Assembly: GCA_965285935.1 (NCBI GenBank)
Contig: OZ260662.1
Location: 88,164,001-88,228,000 of the forward strand
Origin: Ophelia neglecta
Lineage: Eukaryota
Reading direction: 5' to 3'
DNA length: 64,000 bases
Shown here in pieces: positions 1 through 54,623 of the stretch. A program made the translations under genes and the position numbers. Under the pieces are notes generated by a model. The model worked only from the letters and a program-made list of their open reading frames with translations. It made no database searches and was not told where the DNA came from. Position 1 is the stretch's first letter, and the number at the start of each line of letters is the position of its first letter.

Positions 1-989
1 CCACGCTTGTCTGAAGGTGAAGATTACAACCACACCTGTACCGACAAGTTCAGCGTCTTCTACCACTGCAACGCCTGGATCAACTGCTGCAACCACCACC
101 AGTACAACCACACCAGTCACGGAAAGTACAACAGCAACAACAGAGAGTACCACTACCTCTCCGACGACAACCACTACGACAGCTACAAGGACCACCACTA
201 GCACCCAGGGAACAACGACGCTGACAGAGAGAATAACAACTACTCGTACGGAGGTCACTACCACTACCAATGTGGCCACAACCACCACAGTTGCTGTCAC
301 TTCCACCACGCCAGGTGAGAAGTGTCCAGAGGACATGGAAAACCCTACCCTCATCACTCCTGAAATGATCACCATACAGCCAGAGCAATACTCACCTCAA
401 AAGGAGAAGCTAAGAGTAAAACCTGAGCCTAGTGAGCCTTTTACCGCCCCAGTGGCTGAGAAGCCATCCATCATTATCAACTTCCCCGAACCCGACAGCA
501 GCAAACCAAGTGGCACGCTTGTAGAGAAACTCGTATTCCCCAAGCCTAGCAATGTGAAGACAGTTAAAATTTACAGACGCCGGCCTTCCACGCCTACCGA
601 TAACAAACCATCAGATGAGCAATGGGAGCCAGTAGGAGATACGCCTACTTATGATGCTACCAAACCCATTGTCTTTAAGCGTCCAATCAAGGTGATTAAG
701 TTGAAGATTGTGCCTGATGAGCCAACGGACAAGAGTGGAGAGTTCAAGATCAAGCTGCAGGTACATGCCTGTATTAAGGTTAAGATGACCACGACCACTA
801 CATCTACAACTGTGAGACCCACCACTTCACAGGCAGCTACAACAGCCGAAACTTCTCCGACAGAAATGTCATCTACATCAAGAGCTACCACTGCCCGAAC
901 AACCCCTGGAGGCATAACCACTACAGCTGGTACCACGGCAGAACAGACTCAGCCGACCACTACGGTAGCGGCATCAACAACCACACAGG
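1..989 (+). CDS. Mucin exon (array 1, partial): PTS + one F5/8C-like module
   Basis: Open frame with CPEDMENP...LQVHAC module; phase-1 donor at 990. Confidence 0.88.
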
Positions 990-3900
990 GTAATGGCAGC
1001 AATCTCTTTTTTAGTTTCAGCTACAATGTTTTTCTGTGAAATCGATTTAACACAATATGGTATTTCTATGTCATAATTATCAGGATACGCGTCTCAGTTT
1101 AAAATGTTCTGTACCTAACACTCGTCATTTTATCTTACTTTTTACATGACAATTGAATCAGACCGTATTTGAATGACGCTTTCCATATAAAAGACCAATA
1201 TAGCCATGTTTGAAGTTTAATTTCCATGCCTCCTGCATTTTGTTCATGTAAAGTTTTAATGATTTAATTCTTAGTATAAATGCGTTTATATTCTCTTCTG
1301 ATTGTCTCTGAATACAGCTACAACTACAACCACTCCACCAGTTACTACTACTACTGCTGCTGGTTCTACCACATACACATCAGTGATCTCAAGCACGGTT
1401 CAGCCAACCGTGGAGCCATCCACAACAAGCAAAACCACCACCACCACGGAGGGCACCACTACTGTGTCTGGAGTCAACACTTTGACACCAACTACAAGGA
1501 CCTTCCCGACTACAACTGCCACAACTCCTGTGGCTACTACCACGGTTGTTATAACCTCAACTACACCGGGAGAGAAATGTCCAGAGAACATGGACAATCC
1601 TACATTTATCACTCCCAATATGATCACTATCAGGCCTCCACAATTCGACCAAGATAAGCCTAAATTGAGGCCATCGTCCGAGCAACCACTACGCATTCCG
1701 AAGACAGAGAAGCCATCCATCGAAATAGACTTTACCGAGCCCAATCCACAACAGCCAGTCGAAACACCCGTGGATAAGATCGTCTTCCCAACACCTAGCA
1801 ATGTGAAGAGAGTTAAGATTTTTAAGAAAAAACCAACTAGCGGCACCCCGACTGATGAAGAATGGGAAGAGGTGAAGCCAAAGAATGGTGAGCCAACATT
1901 TGATGGCACACATCCAATCGTCTTTGACCCACCAATTGACGTCACTGTACTGAGGATCGTTCCAGAAGAGCCAAATGACAACGACGAGGATTTCATCATC
2001 AAACTGAAGATCCACGCTTGTCTGAAGGTGAAGATTACAACCACACCTGTACCGACAAGTTCAGCGTCTTCTACCACTGCAACGCCTGGATCAACTGCTG
2101 CAACCACCACCAGTACAACCACACCAGTCACGGAAAGTACAACAGCAACAACAGAGAGTACCACTACCTCTCCGACGACAACCACTACGACAGCTACAAG
2201 GACCACCACCAGCACACAGGGAACAACGACGCTGACAGAGAGAATAACAACTACTCCTACGGAGGTCACTACCACTACCAATGTGGCCACAACCACCACA
2301 GTTGCTGTCACTTCCACCACGCCAGGTGAGAAGTGTCCAGAGGACATGGAAAACCCTACCCTCATCACTCCTGAAATGATCACCATACAGCCAGAGCAAT
2401 ACTCACCTCAAAAGGAGAAGCTAAGAGTAAAACCTGAGCCTAGTGAGCCTTTTACTGCCCCAGTGGCTGAGAAGCCATCCATCATTATCAACTTCCCCGA
2501 ACCCGACAGCAGCAAACCAAGTGGCACGCTTGTAGAGAAACTCGTATTCCCCAAGCCTAGCAATGTGAAGACAGTTAAAATTTACAGACGCCGGCCTTCC
2601 ACGCCTACCGATAACAAACCATCAGATGAGCAATGGGAGCCAGTAGGAGATACGCCTACTTATGATGCTACCAAACCCATTGTCTTTAAGCGTCCAATCA
2701 AGGTGATTAAGTTGAAGATTGTGCCTGATGAGCCAACGGACAAGAGTGGAGAGTTCAAGATCAAGCTGCAGGTACATGCCTGTATTAAGGTTAAGCTGAC
2801 CACGACCACTACATCTACAACGGTGAGACCCACCACTTCACAGGCAACTACAACAGCCGAAACTTCTCCGACAGAAATGTCATCTACATCAAGAGCTACC
2901 ACTGCCCGAACAACCCCTGGAGGCATCACCACTACAGCTGGTACCACGGCAGAACAGACTCAGCCGACCACTACAGTAGCGGCATCAACAACCACACAGG
3001 GTAATGGCAGCGATCTCTTTTTTAGTTTCAGCTACAACGTTTTTCTGTGAAATCGATTTAACACAGTCCGGTGTTTCTATGTCATAATTATCAGGATACG
3101 CGTCTCAGTTTAAAATGTTCTGTACCTAACACTCGTCATTTATCTTACTTTTTACATAACAATTGAATCGGATCATATTTGAATGACGCTTTCCATATAA
3201 AAGACCAATATAGCCATGTTTGAAGTATAATTTCCATGCTTCCTGCATTTTGTTCATGTAAATTTTATTTGATATTCTTCTTGGTATGAATGCGTTTATA
3301 TTCTCTTCTGATTGTCTCTGAATACAGCTACAACTACAACCACTCCACCAGTTACTACTACTACTGCTGCTGGTTCTACCACATACACATCAGTGATCTC
3401 AAGCACGGTTCAGCCAACCGTGGAGCCATCCACAACAAGCAAAACCACCACCACCACGGAGGGCACCACTACTGTGTCTGGAGTCAACACTTTGACACCA
3501 ACTACAAGGACCTTCCCGACTACAACTGCCACAACTCCTGTGGCTACTACCACGGTTGTTATTACCTCAACTACACCGGGAGAGAAATGTCCAGAGAACA
3601 TGGACAATCCTACATTTATCACTCCCAATATGATCACTATCAGGCCTCCACAATTCGACCAAGATAAGCCTAAATTGAGGCCATCGTCCGAGCAACCACT
3701 ACGCATTCCGAAGACAGAGAAGCCATCCATCGAGATAGACTTTACCGAGCCCAATCCACAACAGCCAGTCGAAACACCCGTGGATAAGATCGTCTTCCCA
3801 ACACCTAGCAATGTGAAGAGAGTTAAGATTTTTAAGAAAATACCAACTAGCGGCACCCCGACTGATGAAGAATGGGAAGAGGTGAAGCCAAAGAATGGTG

Positions 3901-6900
3901 AGCCAACATTTGATGGCACAAAGCCACTCATCTTTGACCCACCAATTGACGTCACTGTACTGAGGATCGTTCCAGAAGAGCCAACCGACAACGACGAGGA
4001 TTTCATTATCAAACTGAAGATCCACGCTTGTCTGAAGGTGAAGATTACAACCACACCTGTAACAACAAGTTCAGCGTCTTCTACTGAGGCAACGCCTGGA
4101 TCAGCTGCTGCAACCACCACCAGTACAACCACACCAGTCACGGAAAGTTCAACAGGAACCACAGAGAGTACCACTACCTCTCCGACGACAACCACTACGA
4201 CAGCTACAAAGACCACCACTAGCACCCAGGGAACAACGACGCTGACAGAGAGAATAACAACTACTCCTATGGAGGTCACTACCACTACCAATGTCGCCAC
4301 AACCACCACAGTTGCTGTCACTTCCACCACGCCAGGTGAGAAGTGTCCAGAGGACATGGAAAACCCTACCCTCATCACTCCTGAAATGATCACCATACAG
4401 CCAGAGCAATACTCACCTCAAAAGGAGAAGCTAAGAGTAAAACCTGAGCCTAGTGAGCCTTTTACTGCCCCAGTGGCTGAGAAGCCATCCATCATTATCA
4501 ACTTCCCCGAACCCGACAGCAGCAAACCAAGTGGCACGCTTGTAGAGAAACTCGTATTCCCCAAGCCTAGCAATGTGAAGACAGTTAAAATTTACAGACG
4601 CCGGCCTTCCACGCCTACCGATAACAAACCATCAGATGAGCAATGGGAGCCAGTAGGAGATACGCCTACTTATGATGCTACCAAACCCATTGCCTTTAAG
4701 CGTCCAATCAAGGTGATTAAGTTGAAGATTGTGCCTGATGAGCCAACGGACAAGAGTGGAGAGTTCAAGATCAAGCTGCAGGTACATGCCTGTATTAAGG
4801 TTAAGCTGACCACGACCACTACATCTACAACTGTGAGACCCACCACTTCACAGGCAACTACAACAGCCGAAACTTCTCCGACAGAAATGTCATCTACATC
4901 AAGAGCTACCTCTGCCCGAACAACCCCTGGAGGCATCACCAGTACAGCTGGTACCACGGCAGAACAGACTCAGCCGACCACAACAACACCAGTTGTAGCG
5001 GCAACTACAACCACACAGGGTAATGGCAGCGAATAACTGTTTATTTATTGCTAGCTATGCTTTTATTGCTGCAAAGCGTTTCCTTGATCCGAATTATTAG
5101 ATATTTTAACTGTTATTATCAGCAATAAAAATGGATAGTTTCTGCCATAAATTACGATAATCGTTCTCTGATGTTCAACTTTATTATTGCATTGTATTTT
5201 TCATTGATTTCGTTTGTTACAGCCATTTGCATTCCTATGAAGTCACATTTCTGTACCTAGTAGCAAGCTTGATTTAAAGAAATGAAGTTATTGACATTCT
5301 TTCAATATATGTGTTATTTGCAGAATCAACAACTAAAGCCAAGACACAAAAGACTACACCCGTCATCATAACAACAGAGGTTACAAAAACAGTTTCCCCA
5401 TCCCTGACTACAACTATCACTAAAACAACAACTGAGATCATAACAACTGTTGGTACTACAACTTCCTCTGGTGTTAACACTTCAACTCCGTTTGGAACTA
5501 CAACGCAAACCAGTGGAACTACGCCTAAAGTTTCATCAACAACGGCACCACTTGTACTTACTTCGTCCATACCTCCTACTACCTCAAATGCTCCAACTAC
5601 TACCACACGAAAGAGGTATGATGACGAAAAGAAAACTACCACGACTACCCACGCCTCTTCCGCAACTACAACTGTTGAGGTTGGAACAACCACCCAAGGT
5701 GCAACCACAACAGTCAGTGAGAAACCAACTGGACATCCATCCCCATCCGCCACCATATCTGGTTCTACAAGCACTTTAACCACAGCTGGTTCCTCAACTA
5801 TCGGACGTGAAACCACTGCAGTAGCATCAACCACTACTTCAGGTCCTGGTACCACTACTGCACAAACTACAATTGGCGCAGGCACAACAACAACTGAGGA
5901 GGAACTAGCTACAACTACCGGAACCTCAGCAACACCAACAACAACGCATGCTCCAACAGCTGGTAGAACAACGGTTACTGAATCCACTGCACCAGGTAGG
6001 TTTGCAACATAACGTACACAATGCCACTTTTGCCATATTTTTTCAGTGGATGAAGAGTGACAAATACGAGTCTCTCGATTTTTTACATATCTTACCTTTA
6101 ATTCAAGTTAAATGTGTCATTTAAAACTTTGTCAGTAAAATTATTTCGTTACCTTGTTTTTGCCTATTGAGATGGATATTGAACCTGTTGGTTGGCCAAT
6201 GGGATAGATAAGAACACTTACAATGTAAATAACAGGACTGAACTTTTGGAAGATAATAAGATTTTGTATATATATGTAGAATGCCCATAGACACTGGCAT
6301 CATTTTCCTAGAAAAAGTTTAGGAGAGTAATGTAGTTCACTGTCAACGGGGTATAAAGCAGTTTCTTCTTCACATTGGGAGGGCCATTTCCATCCAAAAA
6401 TCACCGGCTTCTCGCATTGAGAATACGACATAGTCTTCTGTAGGCTATTCTAGGCAATATTATTTTCGTCATATGTTGGCCTCTAACCTTCTGCTTGTGC
6501 GATTGACTCGTGTCATGAGAAACAGTAGAATACTTCTCATTGGAAGTGATAACTTTATTTTTATTTATTCCATTCATAATACTTGGTACACGTATTTATA
6601 ATTTTGGAACTGGAGATCGATGTAATCAGGGATGGCGGTCGACGGTTGTTGGTGGACGAATAACTCTATAATATTTTGAATTAGTAATATTGATTTTTCA
6701 GTCGGTTGATTGGATGAGACAAGTGTATGTACCGAAATGCGCTGCTGGTTATGTGTAACCTCCCATACTTTTTCAATTGGTCATCCATTTGGATTCGTAC
6801 CGGCATTAAGTATGCCACTTCCATGCACTTACTCCAACGACAAGCTTATGTCTGGCCGTGTATGACCGATGCATTGAATAGAGAAATGACCCTCTGACAC

Positions 6901-9900
6901 AATTATATTAAAATGTGATTCGGACACACACACAAAAATATTTGTTCATAACGTGTTAAAGCCAAAGTGGTATGCTTTGGTTTCAACTGACAACAGCACT
7001 TTTCTTTTGGCGCCGCAGTTTCATTTTTCAGAAGAAAAAAACCATGAGTAGATACCGCACAGGCAGAATAAATTCGATTCATAAACGGAATGGTATAATC
7101 AGTTTTGTTGGCTGTCCTCAGTAATTTTCTAACATGAAAAGACAATGCTTTTTATGTTTTATAAACGTTCCCATCTGGCACAAAAGTTAACCTTTCAACA
7201 CTTTTAAGAAATAACCATTTTCCTCAGGCTATTGTGATGAAAGGCCGGTGCCTATGGTAAGCACATCCATACTGATATTGGCGACAGGCTCTACACCAAA
7301 AGAAAACATTTACGCTGCAAGCAAGGAATGGACATCTAAGACCAAGAAGGAAAATCATGAACCCAATATTGCTGTGGGAATCAAAGATAGGTCGGTTTTA
7401 TATGTATGGTAAAGTCCTAAACAGTCATTTGTTTTGTTAACGTTAACATTGTCATTTGTCTCGATTTACTGTCTCTTTTTTAGGGGGGTTAAAGAAGTCA
7501 CCTTAGTTGAAATGGAAGTGGAGGGTCAATTAAAAGAAGTTCAGATCCTTACCGATACAGGATACACCAAGGTATTCTTTTAATGACTTGAATAGCATTT
7601 TTAGTATTTACTTATCCAAGAGTGCCTTCAGTAACATATTCCTCATTGACACAATCTGATGTGAAATATTTGTTTGTAATTAGAGTTAAAACACCTGGAA
7701 AAAAGGCATTATACATTCTTACTAAATGTTTTGTCAACACAGAGGGTGTCTGTTTCTAATGCGGATGCCTGGACTTTTGTGAAAATCCCTGTGATTATAG
7801 CCTCAAAGCCTGCCACATTCTTCATAAGGCCAGTGTTTTCTGATGATGCCCTTGATGATTCTTCAGTTGGTGTGAAAAATCTTAAAATCCATGCCTGCTA
7901 TGAAACAAGTGAGCCTTTTTTTTATTGTATTTATTCTAGGAAAGACTTAGATTAATTGAATTGAAGGAATATCCAAAACTCAAATACATTCACTAAACGT
8001 AATTTCAATTTCGCATACCTCTGTTTGCAAAATTTTGTAGCCACCACCACTTCAAATCCAACAAAACCAACTACGCTTACAGGTGAGTCATTGAAATAAA
8101 CATAATCGGTGAATCTATTTTGTGAGAAAAGCGACATTGGAATCAGATAACACGCAGAAAAACACGTTGATGAATAATATAACGGGTACACGGATTACTA
8201 CGCTATCAACGTACAGACCGATTGAACTCACATTTCTCTGTGAACACATTCTACAATCTATTTTCCGTGTGGTTTCACATGGGTCATTGATGTGGAATTG
8301 ATATTCTCTTTTGTTTAGAAAAAAATAGGTTGACAATCTAAAAATTATATATCTCATTATTAAAGCAGTAAATTATAAAAACATATAATGCTGTAATCAT
8401 TTTTTTGTGACAATGTATAGTTGTAACACAAAACACGGACACTTGTGCAAAATTGCAACTTATTTTTTTGTTTAATGTTAAGGCTCAACAACATCCACAC
8501 CGCCTACATCAGTAACCCAGGAACCAACAACAAATACTGAAAGAAACACACCGTCTACAGTAACCACAACTATGAAATCTACTACTACAAGCGGTGTCAC
8601 AAGTCCTATAACTTTCTCATCAACAACAGCTGCTCCTCCGTCTTCTCCCGTACCAACTACCACCACAACGACCAAAGAAGCAACAACCAGTTCCAGTTAT
8701 ATAACAACGACAGGCACACCTGCTGTCACCACAACTACCGTCCTGGCAACAACGGTGACCGTAGCATCAACTACACCTGGCGAAAAATGCCCAGAGGACA
8801 TGGACAACCCTACTTTCATCACTCCCGATATGATAACTGTCAGGCCTCCACAATTCGACAAAGATAAGCCCAAACTTAGACCATCTACAGCGGAACCGCT
8901 TCGGATTCCAAAGACGGAGAAGCCGTCCATCGAGATAGACTTTACCGAGCCCAATCCACAACAACCAGTCGAAACACCGGTGGAAAAGATTATCTTGCCC
9001 ACACCTAGCAATGTGAAGACAGTTAAGATTTTCAAGAAGACAGTAAAACCAACTAGCGGCACCCCGACTGATGAAGAATGGGAAGAAGTGAAGCCAAAGA
9101 ATGGTGAGCCAACATTTGATGGCACAAAACCAATCGTCTTTGATCCACCAATTGACGTTACTGTACTGCGGATCGTTCCAGAAGAGCCAACTGACAACGA
9201 CGAGGATTTCATTATCAAACTGAAGATCCACGCTTGTCTGAAACTGAAGATAACTACCACCACGGTGCTCACTGAACCTACAACAAACACAGAAGGCACA
9301 ACAACACCTTCTATCACGGAACCAGAAACAACTACTACAGGTGCCACCACCACAACTACAACAATGGCCGAAACCACAACCACATCTGCAATTCCTGTGA
9401 CAACGACATCCAGCACTATGGGAACCACAACCATGGTTGAAGTTGCAAGCCCGTCTGGAACAACAACAGCCGCTGTAGGTACAACAACAGAGGAAATGAC
9501 AACCACAACGGTCTCTGGTGTAAACACCCTGACACCAACCATTAGAACCTTCCCAACCACTACAACCGAGGCAACCGTTACCACTACTGTGGGCACTACC
9601 TCCACAGAAGCTGGCACTACTACGTCTGCGGGCGAAGCTACAACCACAGAGAGTACAACACCTGAAACTACAACTGGCAGCATGACTACAACGTCCCTAG
9701 CATCAACAAGTACAGTGGGAAGTACCACACTGCCTAGCACAACTACCACAGTTACCATCACATCAACCATGCCTGGTGAAAAATGCCCCGAAGACATGGA
9801 CAATCCAGTTCTTATCAATCCTAACATGATTACCATCAATCCAAGTAAATACAATGACCAACCAAGTAAAGATAAATTGAGACCATCCTCCGTTAAGCCA

Positions 9901-12900
9901 CTCAGTATCCCCATATCTGAGAAACCCACAATTGAGATTGACTTCTCCAAACCTAGCCCAACAAAGGCATCCAAGACTCCTGTAGAGAAGCTTGTTTTCC
10001 CCAAGCCTAGCAATGTGAAGACAGTGCGGATTTACAAAGAAACGCCTTCTACGCCTGCTGCTGGCAAGCCGTCTAGCGTGCAATGGGAGCCAGTAGGAAC
10101 AGTGCCTACATACGATGCCTCCAAACCAATCATCTTCAGCCCTCCAATCAAGGTGACTAAATTGAAGATTGTACCTGAGGAGCCAACTGACAAGAGTGAA
10201 GATTTCATCATGAAACTCAAAGTTCACGCTTGCATCACCGTCACAGTTACTACAACAACACTGCCAACTACTTCAACAACCGAAACAGCTACAAGTACCA
10301 CTGGTAATTATGTGTTTATCACTTATCATTAAATATTTTACATAAGTGTACTAAGTACGGTTTTCAGTTCTTGCAACAGCATAGAAAGCCTTTATTCAAG
10401 ACATGTATTTTTACAATTTTAATTTCAGCACAAACGACGGTGCCATCGACAACAACCATTTCAGGAACTACAACTTCCGGGACTCTTCCTCCCGAGTTCT
10501 CTTCCACCACCCAGGGTACAACCACAACTCAAGGAGCATCATCAACAACCGAAATAGACACTGGTAGTCCAACTCCAATAAGAACCACGGAAGTCATGAC
10601 TACCACTCAGACACCAACTACAGCTGCTCCTCCCTCTTCTCCCGTACCAACTACCACCACTGGTACAGAAACAACGACCAAAGAAGCAACAACCAGTTCC
10701 AGTTATTTAACAACTACAGGCACACCTGCTGTCACCACAACTACCGTCCTGGCAACAACGGTGACCGTAGCATCAACTACACCTGGCGAAAAATGCCCAG
10801 AGGACATGGACAACCCTACTTTCATCACTCCCGATATGATAACTGTCAGGCCTCCACAATTCGACAAAGATAAGCCCAAACTTAGACCATCTACAGCGGA
10901 ACCGCTTCGGATTCCAAAGACGGAGAAACCATCCATCGAGATAGACTTTACCGAGCCCAATCCACAACAACCAGTCGAAACACCGGTGGAAAAGATTATC
11001 TTGCCCACACCTAGCAATGTGAAGACAGTTAAGATTTTCAAGAAGACAGTAAAACCAACTAGCGGCACCCCGACTGATGAAGAATGGGAAGAAGTGAAGC
11101 CAAAGAATGGTGAGCCAACATTTGATGGCACAAAACCAATCGTCTTTGATCCACCAATTGACGTTACTGTACTGAGGATCGTTCCAGAAGAGCCAACTGA
11201 CAACGACGAGGATTTCATTATCAAACTGAAGATCCACGCTTGTCTGAAACTGAAGATAACTACCACCACGGTGCTCACTGAACCTACAACAAGCACAGAA
11301 GGCACAACAACACCTTCTATCACGGAACCAGAAACAACTACTACAGGTGCCACCACCACAACTACAACAATGGCCGAAACCACAACCACATCTGCAATTC
11401 CTGTGACAACGACATCCAGCACTATGGGAACCACAACCATGGTTGAAGTTACAAGCCCGTCTGGAACAACAACAGCCGCTGTAGGTACAACAACAGAGGA
11501 AATGACAACCACAACGGTCTCTGGTGTAAACACCCTGACACCAACCATTAGAACCTTCCCAACCACTACAACCGAGGCAACCGTTACCACTACTGTGGGC
11601 ACTACCTCCACAGAAGCTGGCACTACTACGTCTGCGGGCGAAGGTACAACCACAGAGAGTACAACACCTGAAACTACAACTGGCAGCATGACTACAACGT
11701 CCCTAGCATCAACAAGTACAGTGGGAAGTACCACACTGCCTAGCACAACTACCACAGTTACCATCACATCAACCATGCCTGGTGAAAAATGCCCCGAAGA
11801 CATGGACAATCCAGTTCTTATCAATCCTAACATGATTACCATCAATCCAAGTAAATACAATGACCAACCAAGTAAAGATAAATTGAGACCATCCTCCGTT
11901 AAGCCACTCAGTATCCCCATATCTGAGAAACCCACAATTGAGATTGACTTCTCCAAACCTAGCCCAACAAAGGCATCCAAGACTCCTGTAGAGAAGCTTG
12001 TTTTCCCCAAGCCTAGCAATGTGAAGACAGTGCGGATTTACAAAGAAACGCCTTCTACGCCTGCTGCTGGCAAGCCGTCTAGCGTGCAATGGGAGCCAGT
12101 AGGAACAGTGCCTACATACGATGCCTCCAAACCAATCATCTTCAGCCCTCCAATCAAGGTGACTAAATTGAAGATTGTACCTGAGGAGCCAACTGACAAG
12201 AGTGAAGATTTCATCATGAAACTCAAAGTTCACGCTTGCATCACCGTCACAGTTACTACAACAACACTGCCAACTACTTCAACAACCGAAACAGCTACAA
12301 GTACCACTGGTAATTATGTGTTTATCACTTATCATTAAATATTTTACATAAGTGTACTAAGTACGGTTTTCAGTTCTTGCAACAGCATAGAAAGCCTTTA
12401 TTCAAGACATGTATTTTTACTATTTTAATTTCAGCACAAACGACGGTGCCATCGACAACAACCATTTCAGGAACTACAACTTCCGGGACTCTTCCTCCCG
12501 AGTTCTCTTCCACCACCCAGGGTACAACCACAACTCAAGGAGCATCATCAACAACCGAAATAGACACTGGTAGTCCAACTCCAATAAGAACCACGGAAGT
12601 CATGACTACCACTCAGACACCAACTACAGCTGCTCCTCCCTCTTCTCCCGTACCAACTACCACCACTGGTACAGAAACAACGACCAAAGAAGCAACAACC
12701 AGTTCCAGTTATTTAACAACTACAGGCACACCTGCTGTCACCACAACTACCGTCCTGGCAACAACGGTGACCGTAGCATCAACTACACCTGGCGAAAAAT
12801 GCCCAGAGGACATGGACAACCCTACTTTCATCACTCCCGATATGATAACTGTCAGGCCTCCACAATTCGACAAAGATAAGCCCAAACTTAGACCATCTAC

Positions 12901-15900
12901 AGCGGAACCGCTTCGGATTCCAAAGACGGAGAAACCATCCATCGAGATAGACTTTACCGAGCCCAATCCACAACAACCAGTCGAAACACCGGTGGAAAAG
13001 ATTATCTTGCCCACACCTAGCAATGTGAAGACAGTTAAGATTTTCAAGAAGACAGTAAAACCAACTAGCGGCACCCCGACTGATGAAGAATGGGAAGAAG
13101 TGAAGCCAAAGAATGGTGAGCCAACATTTGATGGCACAAAACCAATCGTCTTTGATCCACCAATTGACGTTACTGTACTGAGGATCGTTCCAGAAGAGCC
13201 AACTGACAACGACGAGGATTTCATTATCAAACTGAAGATCCACGCTTGTCTGAAACTGAAGATAACTACAACCACGGTGCTCACTGAACCTACAACAAGC
13301 ACAGAAGGCACAACAACACCTTCTATCACAGAACCAGAAACAACTACTACAGGTGCCACCACCACAACTACAACAATAGCCGAAACCACAATCACATCTG
13401 CAATTCCTGTGACAACGACATCCAGCACTATGGGAACCACAACCATGGTTGAAGTTACAAGCCCGTCTGGAACAACAACAGCCGCTACAGGTACAACAAC
13501 AGAGGAAATGACAACCACAACGGTCTCTGGTGTAAACACCCTGACACCAACCATTAGAACCTTCCCAACCACTACAACCGAGGCAACCGTTACCACTACT
13601 GTGGGCACTACCTCCACAGAAGCTGGCACTACTACGTCTACGGGCGAAGCTACAACCACAGAGAGTACAATACCTGAAACTACAACTGGCAGCATGACTA
13701 CAACGTCCCTAGCATCAACAAGTACAGTGGGAAGTACCACACTGCCTAGCACAACTACCACAGTTACCATCACATCAACCATGCCTGGCGAAAAATGCCC
13801 CGAAGACATGGACAATCCAGTTCTTATCAATCCTAACATGATTACCATCAATCCAAGTAAATACAATGACCAACCAAGTAAAGATAAATTGAGACCATCC
13901 TCCGTTAAGCCACTCAGTATCCCCATATCTGAGAAACCCACAATTGAGATTGACTTCTCCCAACCTAGCCCAACAAAGGCATCCAAGACTCCTGTAGAGA
14001 AGCTTGTTTTCCCCAAGCCTAGCAATGTGAAGACAGTGCGGATTTACAAAGAAACGCCTTCTACGCCTGCTGCTGGCAAGCCGTCTAGCGTGCAATGGGA
14101 GCCAGTAGGAACAGTGCCTACATACGATGCCTCCAAACCAATCATCTTCAGCCCTCCAATCAAGGTGACTAAATTGAAGATTGTACCTGAGGAGCCAACT
14201 GACAAGAGTGAAGATTTCATCATGAAACTCAAAGTTCACGCTTGCATCACCGTCACAGTTACTACAACAACACTGCCAACTACTTCAACAACCGAAACAG
14301 CTACAAGTACCACTGGTAATTATGTGTTTATCACTTATTATTAAATTTTTACATAAGTTTACTAAGTACGGTTTTCAGTTCTTGCAACAGCATAGAAAGC
14401 CTTTATTCAAGACAAGTATTTTTACAATTTTAATTTCAGCACAAACGACGGTGCCATCGACAACAACCATTTCAGGAACTACAACTTCCGGGACTCTTCC
14501 TCCCGAGTTCTCTTCCACCACCCAGGGTACAACCACAACTCAAGGAGCATCATCAACAACCGAAATAGACACTGGTAGTCCAACTCCAATAAGAACCACG
14601 GAAGTCATGACTACCACTCAGACACCAACTACAGCTGCTCCTCCCTCTTCTCCCGTACCAACTACCACCACTGGTACAGAAACAACGACCAAAGAAGCAA
14701 CAACCAGTTCCAGTTATTTAACAACTACAGGCACACCTGCTGTCACCACAACTACCGTCCTGGCAACAACGGTGACCGTAGCATCAACTACACCTGGCGA
14801 AAAATGCCCAGAGGACATGGACAACCCTACTTTCATCACTCCCGATATGATAACTGTCAGGCCTCCACAATTCGACAAAGATAAGCCCAAACTTAGACCA
14901 TCTACAGCGGAACCGCTTCGGATTCCAAAGACGGAGAAGCCATCCATCGAGATAGACTTTACCGAGCCCAATCCACAACAACCAGTCGAAACACCGGTGG
15001 AAAAGATTATCTTGCCCACACCTAGCAATGTGAAGACAGTTAAGATTTTCAAGAAGACAGTAAAACCAACTAGCGGCACCCCGACTGATGAAGAATGGGA
15101 AGAAGTGAAGCCAAAGAATGGTGAGCCAACGTTTGATGGCACAAAACCAATCGTCTTTGATCCACCAATTGACGTTACTGTACTGAGGATCGTTCCAGAA
15201 GAGCCAACTGACAACGACGAGGATTTCATTATCAAACTGAAGATCCACGCTTGTCTGAAACTGAAGATAACTACCACCACGGTGCTCACTGAACCTACAA
15301 CAAGCACAGAAGGCACAACAACACCTTCTATCACGGAACCAGAAACAACTACTACAGGTGCCACCACCACAACTACAACAATGGCCGAAACCACAACCAC
15401 ATCTGCAATTCCTGTGACAACGACATCCAGCACTATGGGAACCACAACCATGGTTGAAGTTACAAGCCCGTCTGGAACGACAACAGCCGCTACAGGTACA
15501 ACAACAGAGGAAATGACAACCACAACGGTCTCTGGTGTAAACACCCTGACACCAACCATTAGAACCTTCCCAACCACTACAACCGAGGCAACCGTTACCA
15601 CTACTGTGGGCACTACCTCCACAGAAGCTGGCACTACTACGTCTGCGGGCGAAGCTACAACCACAGAGAGTACAACACCTGAAACTACAACTGGCAGCAT
15701 GACTACAACGTCCCTAGCATCAACAAGTACAGTGGGAAGTACCACACTGCCTAGCACAACTACCACAGTTACCATCACATCAACCATGCCTGGCGAAAAA
15801 TGCCCCGAAGACATGGACAATCCAGTTCTTATCAATCCTAACATGATTACCATCAATCCAAGTAAATACAATGACCAACCAAGTAAAGATAAATTGAGAC

Positions 15901-18900
15901 CATCCTCCGTTAAGCCACTCAGTATCCCCATATCTGAGAAACCCACAATTGAGATTGACTTCTCCAAACCTAGCCCAACAAAGGCATCCAAGACTCCTGT
16001 AGAGAAGCTTGTTTTCCCCAAGCCTAGCAATGTGAAGACAGTGCGGATTTACAAAGAAACGCCTTCTACGCCTGCTGCTGGCAAGCCGTTTAGCGTGCAA
16101 TGGGAGCCAGTAGGAACAGTGCCTACATACGATGCCTCCAAACCAATCATCTTCAGCCCTCCAATCAAGGTGACTAAATTGAAGATTGTACCTGAGGAGC
16201 CAACTGACAAGAGTGAAGATTTCATCATGAAACTCAAAGTTCACGCTTGCATCACCGTCACAGTTACTACAACAACACTGCCAACTACTTCAACAACCGA
16301 AACAGCTACAAGTACCACTGGTAATTATGTGTTTATCACTTATCATTAAATATTTTCCATAGTGTACTAAGTACGGTTTTCAGTTCTTGCAACAGCATAG
16401 AAAGCCTTTATTCAAGACATGTATTTTTACAATTTTAATTTCAGCACAAACGACGGTGCCATCGACAACAACCATTTCAGGAACTACAACTTCCGGGACT
16501 CTTCCTCCCGAGTTCTCTTCCACCACCCAGGGTACAACCACAACTCAAGGAGCATCATCAACAACCGAAATAGACACTGGTAGTCCAACTCCAATAAGAA
16601 CCACGGAAGTCATGACTACCACTCAGACACCAACTACAGCTGCTCCTCCCTCTTCTCCCGTACCAACTACCACCACTGGTACAGAAACAACGACCAAAGA
16701 AGCAACAACCAGTTCCAGTTATTTAACAACTACAGGCACACCTGCTGTCACCACAACTACCGTCCTGGCAACAACGGTGACCGTAGCATCAACTACACCT
16801 GGCGAAAAATGCCCAGAGGACATGGACAACCCTACTTTCATCACTCCCGATATGATAACTGTCAGGCCTCCACAATTCGACAAAGATAAGCCCAAACTTA
16901 GACCATCTACAGCGGAACCGCTTCGGATTCCAAAGACGGAGAAACCATCCATCGAGATAGACTTTACCGAGCCCAATCCACAACAACCAGTCGAAACACC
17001 GGTGGAAAAGATTATCTTGCCCACACCTAGCAATGTGAAGACAGTTAAGATTTTCAAGAAGACAGTAAAACCAACTAGCGGCACCCCGACTGATGAAGAA
17101 TGGGAAGAAGTGAAGCCAAAGAATGGTGAGCCAACATTTGATGGCACAAAACCAATCGTCTTTGATCCACCAATTGACGTTACTGTACTGAGGATCGTTC
17201 CAGAAGAGCCAACTGACAACGACGAGGATTTCATTATCAAACTGAAGATCCACGCTTGTCTGAAACTGAAGATAACTACCACCACGGTGCTCACTGAACC
17301 TACAACAAGCACAGAAGGCACAACAACACCTTCTATCACGGAACCAGAAACAACTACTACAGGTGCCACCACCACAACTACAACAATGGCCGAAACCACA
17401 ACCACATCTGAAATTCCTGTGACAAAGACATCCAGCACTATGGGAACCACAACCATGGTTGAAGTTACAAGCCCGTCTGGAACGACAACAGCCGCTACAG
17501 GTACAACAACAGAGGAAATGACAACCACAACGGTCTCTGGTGTAAACACCCTGACACCAACCATTAGAACCTTCCCAACCACTACAACCGAGGCAACCGT
17601 TACCACTACTGTGGGCACTACCTCCACAGAAGCTGGCACTACTACGTCTGCGGGCGAAGGTACAACCACAGAGAGTACAACACCTGAAACTACAACTGGC
17701 AGCATGACTACAACGTCCCTAGCATCAACAAGTACAGTGGGAAGTACCACACTGCCTAGCACAACTACCACAGTTACCATCACATCAACCATGCCTGGCG
17801 AAAAATGCCCCGAAGACATGGACAATCCAGTTCTTATTAATCCTAACATGATTACCATCAATCCAAGTAAATACAATGACCAACCAAGTAAAGATAAATT
17901 GAGACCATCCTCCGTTAAGCCACTCAGTATCCCCATATCTGAGAAACCCACAATTGAGATTGACTTCTCCAAACCTAGCCCAACAAATGCATCCAAGACT
18001 CCTGTAGAGAAGCTTGTTTTCCCCAAGCCTAGCAATGTGAAGACAGTGCGGATTTACAAAGAAACGCCTTCTACGCCTGCTGCTGGAAAGCCGTCTAGCG
18101 TGCAATGGGAGCCAGTAGGAACAGTGCCTACATACGATGCCTCCAAACCAATCATCTTCAGCCCTCCAATCAAGGTGACTAAATTGAAGATTGTACCTGA
18201 GGAGCCAACAGACAAGAGTGAAGATTTCATCATGAAACTCAAAGTTCACGCTTGCATCACCGTCACAGTTACTACAACAACACTGCCAACTACTTTAACA
18301 ACCGAAACAGCTACAAGTACCACTGGTAATTATGTGTTTATCACTTATTATTAAATTGTTACATAAGTGTACTAAGTACGGTTTTCAGTTCTTGCAACAG
18401 CATAGAAAGCCTTTATTCAAGACATGTATTTTTACAATTTTAATTTCAGCACAAACGACGGTGCCATCGACAACAACCATTTCAGGAACTACAACTTCCG
18501 GGACTCTTCCTCCCGAGTTCTCTTCCACCACCCAGGGTACAACCACAACTCAAGGAGCATCATCAACAACCGAAATAGACACTGGTAGTCCAACTCCAAT
18601 AAGAACCACGGAAGTCATGACTACCACTCAGACACCATCTACAGCTGCTCCTCCCTCTTCTCCCGTACCAACTACCACCACTGGTACAGAAACAACGACC
18701 AAAGAAGCAACAACCAGTTCCAGTTATTTAACAACTACAGGCACACCTGCTGTCACCACAACTACCGTCCTGGCAACAACGGTGACTGTAGCATCAACTA
18801 CACCTGGCGAAAAATGCCCAGAGGACATGGACAACCCTACTTTCATCACTCCCGATATGATAACTGTCAGGCCTCCACAATTCGACAAAGATAAGCCCAA

Positions 18901-21900
18901 ACTTAGACCATCTACAGCGGAACCGCTTCGGATTCCAAAGACGGAGAAGCCATCCATCGAGATAGACTTTACCGAGCCCAATCCACAACAACCAGTCGAA
19001 ACACCGGTGGAAAAGATTATCTTGCCCACACCTAGCAATGTGAAGACAGTTAAGATTTTCAAGAAGACAGTTAAACCAACTAGCGGCACCCCGACTGATG
19101 AAGAATGGGAAGAAGTGAAGCCAAAGAATGGTGAGCCAACATTTGATGGCACAAAACCAATCGTCTTTGATCCACCAATTGACGTTACTGTACTGAGGAT
19201 CGTTCCAGAAGAGCCAACTGACAACGACGAGGATTTCATTATCAAACTGAAGATCCACGCTTGTCTGAAACTGAAGATAACTACCACCACGGTGCTCACT
19301 GAACCTACAACAAGCACAGAAGGCACAACAACACCTTCTATCACGGAACCAGAAACAACTACTACAGGTGCCACCACCACAACTACAACAATGGCCGAAA
19401 CCACAACCACATCTGCAATTCCTGTGACAACGACATCCAGCACTATGGGAACCACAACCATGGTTGAAGTTACAAGCCCGTCTGGAACGACAACAGCCGC
19501 TACAGGTACAACAACAGAGGAAATGACAACCACAACGGTCTCTGGTGTAAACACCCTGACACCAACCATTAGAACCTTCCCAACCACTACAACCGAGGCA
19601 ACCGTTACCACTACTGTGGGCACTACCTCCACAGAAGCTGGCACTACTACGTCTGCGGGCGAAGCTACAACCACAGAGAGTACAACACCTGAAACTACAA
19701 CTGGCAGCATGACTACAACGTCCCTAGCATCAACAAGTACAGTGGGAAGTACCACACTGCCTAGCACAACTACCACAGTTACCATCACATCAACCATGCC
19801 TGGCGAAAAATGCCCCGAAGACATGGACAATCCAGTTCTTATCATTCCTAACATGATTACCATCAATCCAAGTAAATACAATGACCAACCAAGTAAAGAT
19901 AAATTGAGACCATCCTCCGTTAAGCCACTCAGTATCCCCATATCTGAGAAACCCACAATTGAGATTGACTTCTCCAAACCTAGCCCAACAAAGGCATCCA
20001 AGACTCCTGTAGAGAAGCTTGTTTTCCCCAAGCCTAGCAATGTGAAGACAGTGCGGATTTACAAAGAAACGCCTTCTACGCCTGCTGCTGGCAAGCCGTC
20101 TAGCGTGCAATGGGAGCCAGTAGGAACAGTGCCTACATACGATGCCTCCAAACCAATCATCTTCAGCCCTCCAATCAAGGTGACTAAATTGAAGATTGTA
20201 CCTGAGGAGCCAACTGACAAGAGTGAAGATTTCATCATGAAACTCAAAGTTCACGCTTGCATCATCGTCACAGTTACTACAACAACACTGCCAACTACTT
20301 CAACAACCGAAACAGCTACAAGTACCACTGGTAATTATGTGTTTATCACTTATTATTAAATTTTTACATAAGTGTACTAAGTACGGTTTTCAGTTCTTGC
20401 AACAGCATAGAAAGCCTTTATTCAAGACATGTATTTTTACAATTTTAATTTCAGCACAAACGACGGTGCCATCGACAACAACCATTTCAGGAACTACAAC
20501 TTCCGGGACTCTTCCTCCCGAGTTCTCTTCCACCACCCAGGGTACAACCACAACTCAAGGAGCATCATCAACAACCGAAATAGACACTGGTAGTCCAACT
20601 CCAATAAGAACCACGGAAGTCATGACTACCACTCAGACACCATCTACAGCTGCTCCTCCCTCTTCTCCCGTACCAACTACCACCACTGGTACAGAAACAA
20701 CGACCAAAGAAGCAACAACCAGTTCCAGTTATTTAACAACTACAGGCACACCTGCTGTCACCACAACTACCGTCCTGGCAACAACGGTGACCGTAGCATC
20801 AACTACACCTGGCGAAAAATGCCCAGAGGACATGGACAACCCTACTTTCATCACTCCCGATATGATAACTGTCAGGCCTCCACAATTCGACAAAGATAAG
20901 CCCAAACTTAGACCATCTACAGCGGAACCGCTTCGGATTCCAAAGACGGAGAAGCCATCCATCGAGATAGACTTTACCGAGCCCAATCCACAACAACCAG
21001 TCGAAACACCGGTGGAAAAGATTATCTTGCCCACACCTAGCAATGTGAAGACAGTTAAGATTTTCAAGAAGACAGTTAAACCAACTAGCGGCACCCCGAC
21101 TGATGAAGAATGGGAAGAAGTGAAGCCAAAGAATGGTGAGCCAACATTTGATGGCACAAAACCAATCGTCTTTGATCCACCAATTGACGTTACTGTACTG
21201 AGGATCGTTCCAGAAGAGCCAACTGACAACGACGAGGATTTCATTATCAAACTGAAGATCCACGCTTGTCTGAAACTGAAGATAACTACCACCACGGTGC
21301 TCACTGAACCTACAACAAGCACAGAAGGCACAACAACACCTTCTATCACGGAACCAGAAACAACTACTACAGGTGCCACCACCACAACTACAACAATGGC
21401 CGAAACCACAACCACATCTGCAATTCCTGTGACAACGACATCCAGCACTATGGGAACCACAACCATGGTTGAAGTTACAAGCCCGTCTGGATCAACAACA
21501 GCCGCTACAGGTACAACAACAGAGGAAATGACAACCACAACGGTCTCTGGTGTAAACACCCTGACACCAACCATTAGAACCTTCCCAACCACTACAACCG
21601 AGGCAACCGTTACCACTACTGTGGGCACTACCTCCACAGAAGCTGGCACTACTACGTCTGCGGGCGAAGCTACAACCACAGAGAGTACAACACCTAAAAC
21701 TACAACTGGCAGCATGACTACAACGTCCCTGGCATCAACAAGTACAGTGGGAAGTACCACACTGCCTAGCACAACTACCACAGTTACCATCACATCAACC
21801 ATGCCTGGCGAAAAATGCCCCGAAGACATGGACAATCCAGTTCTTATCAATCCTAACATGATTACCATCAATCCAAGTAAATACAATGACCAACCAAGTA

Positions 21901-24900
21901 AAGATAAATTGAGACCATCCTCCGTTAAGCCACTCAGTATCCCCATATCTGAGAAACCCACAATTGAGATTGACTTCTCCAAACCTAGCCCAACAAAGGC
22001 ATCCAAGACTCCTGTAGAGAAGCTTGTTTTCCCCAAGCCTAGCAATGTGAAGACAGTGCGGATTTACAAAGAAACGCCTTCTACGCCTGCTGCTGGCAAG
22101 CCGTCTAGCGTGCAATGGGAGCCAGTAGGAACAGTGCCTACATACGATGCTTCCAAACCAATCATCTTCAGCCCTCCAATCAAGGTGACTAAATTGAAGA
22201 TTGTACCTGAGGAGCCAACTGACAAGAGTGAAGATTTCATCATGAAACTCAAAGTTCACGCTTGCATCACCGTCACAGTTACTACAACAACACTGCCAAC
22301 TACTTCAACAACCGAAACAGCTACAAGTACCACTGGTAATTATGTGTTTATCACTTATTATTAAATTTTTACATAAGTGTACTAAGTACGGTTTTCAGTT
22401 CTTGCAACAGCATAGAAAGTCTTTATTCAAGACAAGTATTTTAACAATTTTAATTTCAGCACAAACGACGGTGCCATCGACAACAACCATTTCAGGAACT
22501 ACAACTTCCGGGACTCTTCCTCCCGAGTTCTCTTCCACCACCCAGGGTACAACCACAACTCAAGGAGCATCATCAACAACCGAAATAGACACTGGTAGTC
22601 CAACTCCAATAAGAACCACGGAAGTCATGACTACCACTCAGACACCAACTACAGCTGCTCCTCCCTCTTCTCCCGTACCAACTACCACCACTGGTACAGA
22701 AACAACGACCAAAGAAGCAACAACCAGTTCCAGTTATTTAACAACTACAGGCACACCTGCTGTCACCACAACTACCGTCCTGGCAACAACGGTGACAGTA
22801 GCATCAACTACACCTGGCGAAAAATGCCCAGAGGACATGGACAACCCTACTTTCATCACTCCCGATATGATAACTGTCAGGCCTCCACAATTCGACAAAG
22901 ATAAGCCCAAACTTAGACCATCTACAGCGGAACCGCTTCGGATTCCAAAGACGGAGAAGCCATCCATCGAGATAGACTTTACCGAGCCCAATCCACAACA
23001 ACCAGTCGAAACACCGGTGGAAAAGATTATCTTGCCCACACCTAGCAATGTGAAGACAGTTAAGATTTTCAAGAAGACAGTTAAACCAACTAGCGGCACC
23101 CCGACTGATGAAGAATGGGAAGAAGTGAAGCCAAAGAATGGTGAGCCAACGTTTGATGGCACAAAACCAATCGTCTTTGATCCACCAATTGACGTTACTG
23201 TACTGAGGATCGTTCCAGAAGAGCCAACTGACAACGACGAGGATTTCATTATCAAACTGAAGATCCACGCTTGTCTGAAACTGAAGATAACTACCACCAC
23301 GGTGCTCACTGAACCTAAAACAAGCACAGAAGGCACAACAACACCTTCTATCACGGAACCAGAAACAACTACTACAGGTGCCACCACCACAACTACAACA
23401 ATGGCCGAAACCACAACCACATCTGCAATTCCTGTGACAACGACATCCAGCACTATGGGAACCACAACCATGGTTGAAGTTACAAGCCCGTCTGGAACGA
23501 CAACAGCCGCTACAGGTACAACAACAGAGGAAATGACAACCACAACGGTCTCTGGTGTAAACACCCTGACACCAACCATTAGAACCTTCCCAACCACTAC
23601 AACCGAGGCAACCGTTACCACTACTGTGGGCACTACCTCCACAGAAGCTGGCACTACTACGTCTGCGGGCGAAGCTACAACCACAGAGAGTACAACACCT
23701 GAAACTACAACTGGCAGCATGACTACAACGTCCCTAGCATCAACAAGTACAGTGGGAAGTACCACACTGCCTAGCACAACTACCACAGTTACCATCACAT
23801 CAACCATGCCTGGCGAAAAATGCCCCGAAGACATGGACAATCCAGTTCTTATCAATCCTAACATGATTACCATCAATCCAAGTAAATACAATGACCAACC
23901 AAGTAAAGATAAATTGAGACCATCCTCCGTTAAGCCACTCAGTATCCCCATATCTGAGAAACCCACAATTGAGATTGACTTCTCCAAACCTAGCCCAACA
24001 AAGGCATCCAAGACTCCTGTAGAGAAGCTTGTTTTCCCCAAGCCTAGCAATGTGAAGACAGTGCGGATTTACAAAGAAACGCCTTCTACGCCTGCTGCTG
24101 GCAAGCCGTCTAGCGTGCAATGGGAGCCAGTAGGAACAGTGCCTACATACGATGCCTCCAAACCAATCATCTTCAGCCCTCCAATCAAGGTGACTAAATT
24201 GAAGATTGTACCTGAGGAGCCAACTGACAAGAGTGAAGATTTCATCATGAAACTCAAAGTTCACGCTTGCATCACCGTCACAGTTACTACAACAACACTG
24301 CCAACTACTTCAACAACCGAAACAGCTACAAGTACCACTGGTAATTATGTGTTTATCACTTATCATTAAATATTTTACATAAGTGTACTAAGTACGGTTT
24401 TCAGTTCTTGCAACAGCATAGAAAGCCTTTATTCAAGACATGTATTTTTACAATTTTAATTTCAGCACAAACGACGGTGCCATCGACAACAACCATTTCA
24501 GGAACTACAACTTCCGGGACTCTTCCTCCCGAGTTCTCTTCCACCACCCAGGGTACAACCACAACTCAAGGAGCATCATCAACAACCGAAATAGACACTG
24601 GTAGTCCAACTCCAATAAGAACCACGGAAGTCATGACTACCACTCAGACACCAACTACAGCTGCTCCTCCCTCTTCTCCCGTACCAACTACCACCACTGG
24701 TACAGAAACAACGACCAAAGAAGCAACAACCAGTTCCAGTTATTTAACAACTACAGGCACACCTGCTGTCACCACAACTACCGTCCTGGCAACAACGGTG
24801 ACCGTAGCATCAACTACACCTGGCGAAAAATGCCCAGAGGACATGGACAACCCTACTTTCATCACTCCCGATATGATAACTGTCAGGCCTCCACAATTCG

Positions 24901-53760: not shown

Positions 53761-54623
53761 CGATCGTGGATTCAATCGAAACAGCCTCACTACACCGGAT
53801 GAGGACTGTAAATGCCTGCATGTACAACGTTCTCCATCAGTATTTTTAATGACCTCACAGCAGAAGCTACTCGGTAACTACTTTGATATAGGCCTATGGG
53901 AGTAATTTCGAGCTTGACATTAATTTGCTGAAATGTGACATTTATGAACTCAATGCTGGTTTTTGTTGGCTTAGTTTATGCAGCACAAAAGCCTATTCCT
54001 ATTACCTCATTGAAATAATTAATAAATACTTGTGCGCGGGCAACATGGATATATAAGTTGATGACATTCATAAGAGCAAATGCACTAGTGTTTCAGTAGA
54101 ATTGAATCATCCACTTGTACGCTTAAACATTGCAGACACAGTGAAATACATCATCGACCTATTATTTCAAATAAGAGGCGCTGTTTTCCATTGAACATAA
54201 GGTTGGCAAATATTTTATTTTTTGTGTTGCAAACTTCAAGTCTGTACTGATGAAAAAAGATATGGAGACTACTAATTCTAAACGATTTTAAGCATGATAT
54301 TGGTTATCAACCAAGTCAGTGCATTACTTGTAATTACAAGTTTGAATTTCTCAACTAATTTGTTAAACACAATGTATTAGTATAGTTTAAACCTAATCTA
54401 GTGTAACATTTCTGATTAAGCAGCAAAATGAACACTGAGCGTAAGCGTGGTTTATGATATAGCACGGTTTATTGGGGTAGGCCTAGTCGGAATGATTAAA
54501 ACTCGGCTAGCGCTATGAGACACATTGAAATCATTTGGAGTACCAGCAAAAACAGCCCTATATTAAACAGCTACGCAGAAAGTTTTCATAATGTTACCCA
54601 TTTCCTTTTCTGTAGAATATACT

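Follow-up and report, generated by a model that had tools for sequence, protein, structure and literature searches.

The 150-residue module repeated in the window (the whole 64,000-nucleotide stretch of Ophelia neglecta DNA analysed here, G000:C2:88164001-88228000) is almost certainly homologous to the F5/8 type C (F5/8C, discoidin) domain, and structural models predict that it folds into the eight-stranded, two-sheet discoidin beta-sandwich. We lean towards the view that this discoidin-fold module acts in one giant gel-forming mucin as a repeated, non-covalent cross-linking bead. The module is a derived variant of a known domain inside a known protein class.

Sequence of module A

8788..9237, + strand: module A, first copy, a derived F5/8 type C (discoidin) domain (translation, AlphaFold2, Foldseek, VIA-align; net charge -8)

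Translation of 8788-9237 on the forward strand yielded exactly 150 amino acids, from Cys1 to Cys150, with cysteine at the termini alone. The first-pass annotation had claimed such a two-cysteine module with a set of named motifs, and the translation confirmed this: IEIDF, WEEV, FDPPIDVTVLRIVP and IKLKIHAC were all found in module A. The F5/8C motifs AW and SxDG, described as absent, are indeed missing from it. The module had also been called Pro/Lys-rich. The proline part of that description held, with 25 Pro in 150 residues (family median, 8.9%), next to 17 Thr, 16 Lys, 15 Glu and 13 Asp; the lysine part did not, since 20 Lys and Arg residues face 28 Asp and Glu residues. With the resulting net charge of -8, "Pro-rich and highly charged" fits module A better than "Lys-rich." The sole histidine is residue 148 and the sole tryptophan residue 98. 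A stop-free reading of the same positions on the reverse strand was dropped because the splice sites, the homologs and the fold all belong to the forward frame.

Predicted fold

The AlphaFold2 models of module A (pLDDT 88.7, pTM 0.83) and module B, the second module of the same exon (pLDDT 91.6, pTM 0.85), were all-beta except for one short helix; both were built on 74-row alignments with the same rows, and hence the two models are not independent. Foldseek matched module A best to the factor VIII C2 domain (E 1.8e-4, probability 1.00), and among the matches listed (29 of 30 at E <=0.001), all were factor V/VIII, neuropilin, DDR2 or CASPR2. Module B matched the same families, with F5/8C entries first and a probability of 1.00. 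The Foldseek E-values are modest for the modules (1e-4 to 1e-3, TM about 0.5-0.64). When 48,161 chains were searched with VIA-align, ranks 1-17 were all discoidin domains (neuropilin, factor V/VIII, discoidin I, CASPR2 and DDR1/2), with Z 11.8-12.8, an rmsd of 2.8-3.2 A and 126-132 of 150 residues aligned. Bacterial F5/8C, CBM32, DOC and IFT25 followed at Z <=11.2, a small margin (11.8 vs 11.2). In these alignments model residues 1..150 cover the full length of known discoidin domains. Furthermore, the ten best named matches in the ESM Atlas all belonged to the family or clan of PF00754 (top score, 0.95). Structure prediction, Foldseek and VIA-align thus gave neither disorder nor an unrelated fold, and they support the derived F5/8C fold that had been proposed.

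The terminal cysteines are invariant where covered (41/41 and 66/66 rows). In discoidin domains the disulfide between the terminal cysteines is described as strictly conserved (PMC4332414), and a Cys1-Cys150 disulfide is probably present in the module. Compared with known F5/8C domains (PF00754; factor V/VIII C1-C2, neuropilin b1/b2, DDR DS and CASPR2), the module shares the predicted sandwich over 126-132/150 residues at ~3 A, the terminal Cys pair and a motif order of M..I-T-V, RP, IxIDF, W, FxPPI, LRIxP and xLxxHAC. It differs in being only 10-21% identical, in falling under the Pfam cut-off and in its short Pro-rich loops; SxDG has been lost, AW has become GW or been lost, QG has become (G/S)NV, and ELxGC has become xxHAC. 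Moreover, it occurs in at least 55 copies between PTS linkers, whereas F5/8C domains occur in one or two.

Sequence homology to F5/8 type C domains

The prediction that standard HMMs may miss the module came true for Pfam: against PF00754, with a cut-off of 28.2 bits, module A scored 13.7 bits and module E 12.1, and B and D gave no match. At E 0.1 or better, PF00754 matched 7 of the 74 alignment members. At least 84 PF00754 matches were found in the genome, of which 0 lay inside the arrays (150 of 555 candidates scored). Since the scores remain below the cut-off, the module represents a derived subfamily rather than a curated member. The ordinary PF00754 matches (at least 84) lie on contigs C1, C2, C5, C7, C8 and C16, many of them in tandem clusters.

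Direct hhalign comparison of the family with ordinary F5/8C gave 2.7% (E 0.017) with a fragmentary, mixed template of 20 exon fragments of the same genome. The family profile aligned at 92.7% (E 4e-7) with four PF00754-passing domains from P0011, P0032, P0076 and P0106, proteins of the same profile search; a reversed control gave 0.47%, and column shuffles gave <=0.18% in 20/20 cases. The four bridge domains in turn aligned with ordinary F5/8C fragments of the same genome at 93.8%. As the direct comparison is weak, homology at the sequence level runs via intermediates only. Residues 164-308 of P0025 were matched by both PF00754 and the family profile, and in a quick tree the four PF00754-passing domains joined two P0025 family domains (SH-aLRT 97). 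The sequences form a graded series, from ordinary F5/8C over GW...TGF...SxDG..Y bridges to the RP..GW..P.I.I.L..GNV..HAC family and finally to the Pro-rich, Trp-less window copies, with SxDG-like words surviving in the four bridge domains only. We infer that the ancestor of the module was an ordinary F5/8C domain in a mucin of the hemolectin/SCO-spondin-like kind. Single-sequence searches returned 0 of 12 candidates of similar length and one non-significant PDB sequence match, and for 5/5 proteins no NCBIfam family was found. A label at superfamily level may already exist for the module (SMART FA58C, CATH/SUPERFAMILY or AlphaFold DB clusters).

Copies of the module and the two exon arrays

1..5019, + strand: last units of array 1, type C plus type D per exon
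323-772, 2334-2783 and 4344-4793, + strand: module type D copies in the window (tblastn)
1578-2021 and 3588-4031, + strand: module type C copies in the window (tblastn)
8483..10303, + strand: exon 1 of array 2, in which modules A and B, in this order, are each preceded by a Thr-rich linker and a Thr-rich tail closes the exon (1821 nt, AG/GT, divisible by 3)
9784..10233, + strand: module type B, with the same predicted fold as A, 57-60% identity to it and a net charge of +5 (tblastn, AlphaFold2, Foldseek)
10429..34367, + strand: remainder of array 2, 12 exons x 1881 nt (626 codons), every one with an A and a B module (GT-AG introns of 124-125 nt, stop-free)

That the module is repeated was verified by tblastn of the window, which found 32 full-length copies: 13 of type A, all with identical protein sequence, 13 of type B, 2 of type C, 3 of type D and 1 of type E. 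A search of the genome (762 Mb) gave 60 matches, comprising 55 full-length copies, 4 pieces of one broken unit and 1 remote fragment. The 55 full-length copies all lie inside 67 kb, fall into the five paralogous types and are each intact and single-exon. Array 1, which begins 23 kb upstream of the window, has 14 exons (13 x 1683 nt and 1 x 1692 nt) with one C and one D each, and array 2 has 13 exons (1 x 1821 nt and 12 x 1881 nt) with one A and one B each. All 27 array exons have AG/GT ends, a length divisible by three and no stop; the exon at 8483-10303 is open, is flanked by GT-AG introns and joins its neighbours in frame without a stop. Given use of every exon, the arrays would encode 7,857 + 8,131 residues, about 16,000. 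In array 2, Thr and Ser make up 56% of the 326 linker residues per exon. The amplified modules are intron-free; older modules of the same gene are split across 2-4 exons.

The 12 equal array-2 exons differ from each other by 1-18 bases (mean, 10.9), and their introns (124-125 nt) are near-identical, which suggests recent or continuing homogenisation. Among these exons, amino-acid-changing and silent variants numbered 0/3 in module A, 6/7 in module B and 16/9 in the linkers. dN/dS was 0.12 for A-C and 0.25 for B-D; for the remaining 8/10 paralog pairs dS was saturated or undefined. Of the two modules in a repeat exon, one is acidic (A, -8; C, -7) and the other neutral to basic (B, +5; D, +1). 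A general rule of acid/base alternation was dropped, as it is absent from most homologs with several modules. Summed depth over array pieces was ~7-12x that of the flank (three runs of one sample, maybe the assembly source), a ratio that is not a copy number.

The edges of the arrays carry incomplete units. The first unit of array 1 (L021:9350-10000 and L029:1-850; G000:C2:88139432-88140630) has deletions and frameshifts in both modules, and the next 14 units are intact; it is likely a decayed, skipped edge copy or an assembly error. Behind the last array-2 exon, at window positions 34372-34606, an extra intron copy runs directly into the final strand of module B (...LQVHAC), after which comes a short Thr-rich tail; this is the remnant of a 14th, mostly deleted array-2 unit. 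An isolated, frameshifted type B fragment lies 1.9 Mb upstream of the gene (L032:5400-5680, G000:C2:86271418), and no adjoining mucin exons were seen.

The arrays are part of a likely gel-forming mucin gene

5324..5995, + strand: Thr-rich (PTS) exon between the arrays, 672 nt
7228..7908, + strand: divergent intron-containing module, exons 7228-7390, 7484-7571 and 7743-7908, 134 aa from Cys to ...KIHAC (weak family-profile match, 11 bits)
8041..8082, + strand: small Thr-rich linker exon, 42 nt (splice path)
39370..39654, + strand: open stretch in which a less-derived F5/8C-like domain is represented by its C-terminal strands, ...FVKFTI...FNVQLQGC (Pfam match weak, E 0.19)
40172..40441, + strand: TIL domain exon (Pfam 30.9 bits, cut-off 24.5)
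43293..43730, + strand: the one copy of module type E, with 79% identity to A (genome search, tblastn)
48011..48229, + strand: exon of the C-terminal cystine knot (Pfam: DAN at 31 bits with a cut-off of 22, Cys_knot at E 0.003)

Upstream of the arrays and on the same strand, EGF, VWD, C8 and LDLa exons scored above their Pfam cut-offs. Three GLCGN VWD motifs were found there; the two such stretches that were scanned both passed Pfam VWD and one C8 passed, and the third VWD and the upstream TILs were identified by eye. The VWD-type exons are followed by older, intron-containing modules, four of which were matched exon by exon in L023 and L021, and a less-derived F5/8C domain with an FSNDG..W..Y word is located upstream at L021:5921-6271 (E 0.003). 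Splicing was examined inside the arrays and across window 3328-12309; among four splice paths tried between the arrays, one was open, and this path takes in the three-exon divergent module. Downstream of array 2 come Cys-rich exons, the TIL and the cystine knot. The mucin parts lie on one strand, in the order of a gel-forming mucin, over about 110 kb, and several features of gel-forming mucins are present: three VWD-C8-TIL units, long PTS regions and a C-terminal cystine knot. The exons from the VWD domains through the arrays to the cystine knot probably form one transcript, and it is very probable that all parts make up one mucin gene. When the 42 kb upstream were crudely scanned for hydrophobicity, 11 candidate starts came up, none of them a convincing signal exon. 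CysD was not found at the mucin locus, the single PF13330 match of the genome lying on a different contig. The stretches scanned at the locus showed no C-terminal VWD motif.

A second module type, shorter, more divergent and with ...KAC or ...VAC at its end, has about three copies in the upstream part of the mucin gene (L023:9631 to L022:3910). The same type is found in P0025, P0032 and P0076, with about a dozen copies in P0106, and gives weak family-profile scores. The mucin gene is followed by two paralogous long-exon leucine-rich-repeat genes (window 54567-56042 and 62134-63636, + strand) with hydrophobic N-termini and Cys-rich caps.

Relatives in other lophotrochozoans

A word-indexed search found three homologs of 30-46% identity. 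When 1.84 billion representatives were searched with a profile, there were 103 hits, 94/103 of which carry the module as judged with the iterated profile; the query profile also contained flanking VWC and Thr-rich columns, and the 9/103 module-less hits were dropped. The 94 homologous proteins support the new subfamily that the first-pass annotation had envisaged. Named relatives (30 proteins looked up by cluster) were a "mucin-2-like" protein of Liolophura sinensis, two proteins of Dimorphilus gyrociliatus, a "mucin-2-like" protein of Lineus longissimus, a protein of Bugula neritina and a "SCO-spondin-like" protein of Magallana. Every one is lophotrochozoan, that is, from a chiton, annelid, nemertean, bryozoan or oyster. 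The Lineus protein contains VWD x3, C8 x3, LDLa x7 and 13 modules, and VWD x3, LDLa and the module are united in single Lineus and oyster proteins. There are 12 equal-scoring full copies in the Bugula protein and 7 in the chiton protein, so that tandem amplification is seen in three named relatives (bryozoan, nemertean and chiton).

Over 115 distinct near-full domains, the most conserved positions were Cys150 (111), Asn75 (106), Met5 (98) and Pro46, Val76 and Ala149 (96 each), followed by Ile16 (89), Arg31 (81) and Pro32 (80). Trp at position 38 is present in 63 domains, and the absence of the AW tryptophan, true of the window copies, therefore does not extend to the whole family. The net charge of the family spans -28 to +7. 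In the quick tree the five window types fell into one supported group of 14 rows, including nine other domains; the tree had 112 rows with 54/109 inner branches open, and no order of events was drawn from it.

Proposed role in mucus

In discoidin domains the ligand face at the top is made up of loops L1-L4 and L6, and the two termini meet at the bottom of the barrel, tied together by the disulfide (PMC4332414). If the module is built likewise, the terminal disulfide would hold both of its termini on one face, and with the termini fixed by Cys1-Cys150 the bead would hang from the chain. In the model of module A, residues 20-46, 70-75 and 135-139 would form the top face. In these putative loops Phe23 is the only aromatic residue; His and Trp are absent, and Pro, Lys, Asp and Glu are frequent. 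Across the family the loops show little conservation. The loop sequence suggests that the ligand site is altered relative to F5/8C, and the single aromatic and poor conservation make a fixed sugar or lipid pocket a poor fit.

CysD domains (Mucin2_WxxW, PF13330; MUC2, MUC5AC and MUC5B) are small, disulfide-bonded beta domains amid PTS regions, as the module is predicted to be. The likeness is a functional analogy only, as the module is unrelated to CysD in fold and sequence, has no WxxW (one Trp) and has two cysteines where CysD has many. In MUC2, CysD binds VWD1 and C8-2 and is required for filaments (PMC7599080). The loop content, the CysD-like placement between PTS regions and the lack of CysD at the locus favour weak, multivalent cross-linking, and by this analogy we give a CysD-like cross-linking role a little less than an even chance. 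Beads would then hang off an O-glycosylated chain about every 160 linker residues with the loop face outward, and would make weak, highly multivalent protein-protein contacts, either with each other or with the VWD/C8 units. Polymerisation would proceed at the head via the VWD assemblies and at the tail via the cystine knot, as in vertebrate mucins. A complex prediction for modules A and B, run without alignments, gave a score of 0.09 and a mark of 0.34 and carries no weight either way. In a broader scenario, which we regard as unlikely, lophotrochozoans would have turned the discoidin domain of a hemolectin-like mucin into a dedicated cross-linker that stands in for CysD. Having lost its introns, the domain would have become a one-exon cassette and undergone separate amplification in several phyla, leading here to an acidic plus a neutral-to-basic bead per exon in a protein of ~20,000 residues, with gel strength set by bead number.

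With the same fold, the beads could instead be passive spacers, free of glycosylation and resistant to proteases, whose effect is to stiffen the chain or give it a pattern; this is a somewhat unlikely alternative that would ascribe the amplification to the ease with which a symmetric exon duplicates. The conserved positions (Cys, Met5, Ile16, Pro46, Asn75-Val76 and Ala149-Cys150) resemble core or turn residues, the family net charge varies widely, and the arrays are homogenised, introns included, as unequal crossing-over predicts. However, a dN/dS of 0.12-0.25 over the whole module and 0 amino-acid changes in 13 A copies argue against mere spacers, as do the retention of two distinct module types per exon in both arrays and the recurrence of tandem arrays in bryozoan, nemertean and chiton. 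The beads could also be lectins, like CBM32 or Dictyostelium discoidin, that act multivalently on mucin O-glycans or microbial glycans. CBM32, bacterial galactose-binding modules, belong to the same clan and superpose with Z 9-11; when the family profile was compared with PDB sequences, it gave hints to just two CBM32 chains (4a42, E 0.078; 2v72, E 0.53) and one unrelated chain. In a weak alignment the near-invariant Asn75 falls near the GNN loop of the NanJ CBM32, and discoidin I takes structural rank 5 in VIA-align. The galactose site of CBM32 is built of His, Arg and Trp; the putative top loops of A, however, offer neither His nor Trp, RP stands in place of DG in the CBM32 alignment, and sugar-site residues are not evident in the module. 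As the CBM32 sequence matches are also non-significant and the chains rank under the metazoan discoidins in VIA-align, we consider lectin activity doubtful.

Binding to lipid or solid surfaces via the loops, which would anchor the mucus or an adhesive to cells or substratum, is suggested by the factor V/VIII C domains at the top of the Foldseek list. C2 domains of the factor V/VIII type carry exposed hydrophobic spike residues, and titles of the Foldseek-matched entries name L2251/L2252 and W2313. No counterpart of such spikes is evident in the module, whose top loops abound in Pro, Lys, Asp and Glu, and the net charge of module A is acidic; this reading, modelled on factor V/VIII and lactadherin C2, is improbable even though a SCO-spondin-like VWD/LDLa protein occurs in adhesive limpet pedal mucus (PMC7333891). 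Very improbable, and already largely refuted, is the reading that the module is convergent, or a separate member of the galactose-binding-domain-like clan, or that the array is an assembly artefact. Pfam scores under the cut-off, the weak direct hhalign result and several Atlas matches to IFT25, NR2C2AP or CEP104-type clusters would fit a non-F5/8C origin, but graded intermediates in the same proteins, clean controls, the SH-aLRT 97 grouping of PF00754-passing and P0025 domains and the terminal Cys pair all speak for F5/8C. Near-identical copies might reflect misassembly, but they differ by 1-18 bases, their splice sites are intact and similar arrays occur in other species. Non-covalent cross-linking by the repeated beads remains the role that we prefer.

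Relation to known mucins

The F5_F8 domain has been called characteristic of lophotrochozoan mucin-like proteins (PMC4948705), and a discoidin fold in the present mucin is therefore expected. As described there, the hemolectin-/SCO-spondin-like lophotrochozoan mucins resemble the present one in having three VWD-C8-TIL-type units followed by F5/8C and PTS regions. The present mucin differs from that description in that its F5/8C domains are mostly derived and missed by Pfam, its arrays alone would encode ~16,000 residues, and no CysD was found at the locus and no C-terminal VWD motif among the scanned stretches. For the SCO-spondin-like protein of limpet pedal mucus, the main text does not name the module domain (PMC7333891). 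Topic searches of the openly accessible literature brought up no paper on this derived subfamily, which Pfam does not see, or on the tandem amplification that it has undergone repeatedly.

The present data put a name to a domain for which Pfam gives no annotation in proteins labelled "mucin-2-like" or "SCO-spondin-like" from molluscs, annelids, nemerteans and bryozoans. The long Thr-rich regions of such proteins appear as beads on a string, not plain PTS. If the module is only a passive spacer, the value lies in a new profile and improved annotation. Since a 150-residue module with two cysteines is easy to express, one can now test directly how invertebrates cross-link their mucus and adhesive gels in the absence of many CysD domains. 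Linkers are not Thr-rich in every homolog: P0005 has four modules with His-rich linkers (HPHDEHH-type repeats) in their place, which hints at metal-based cross-linking in another lineage.
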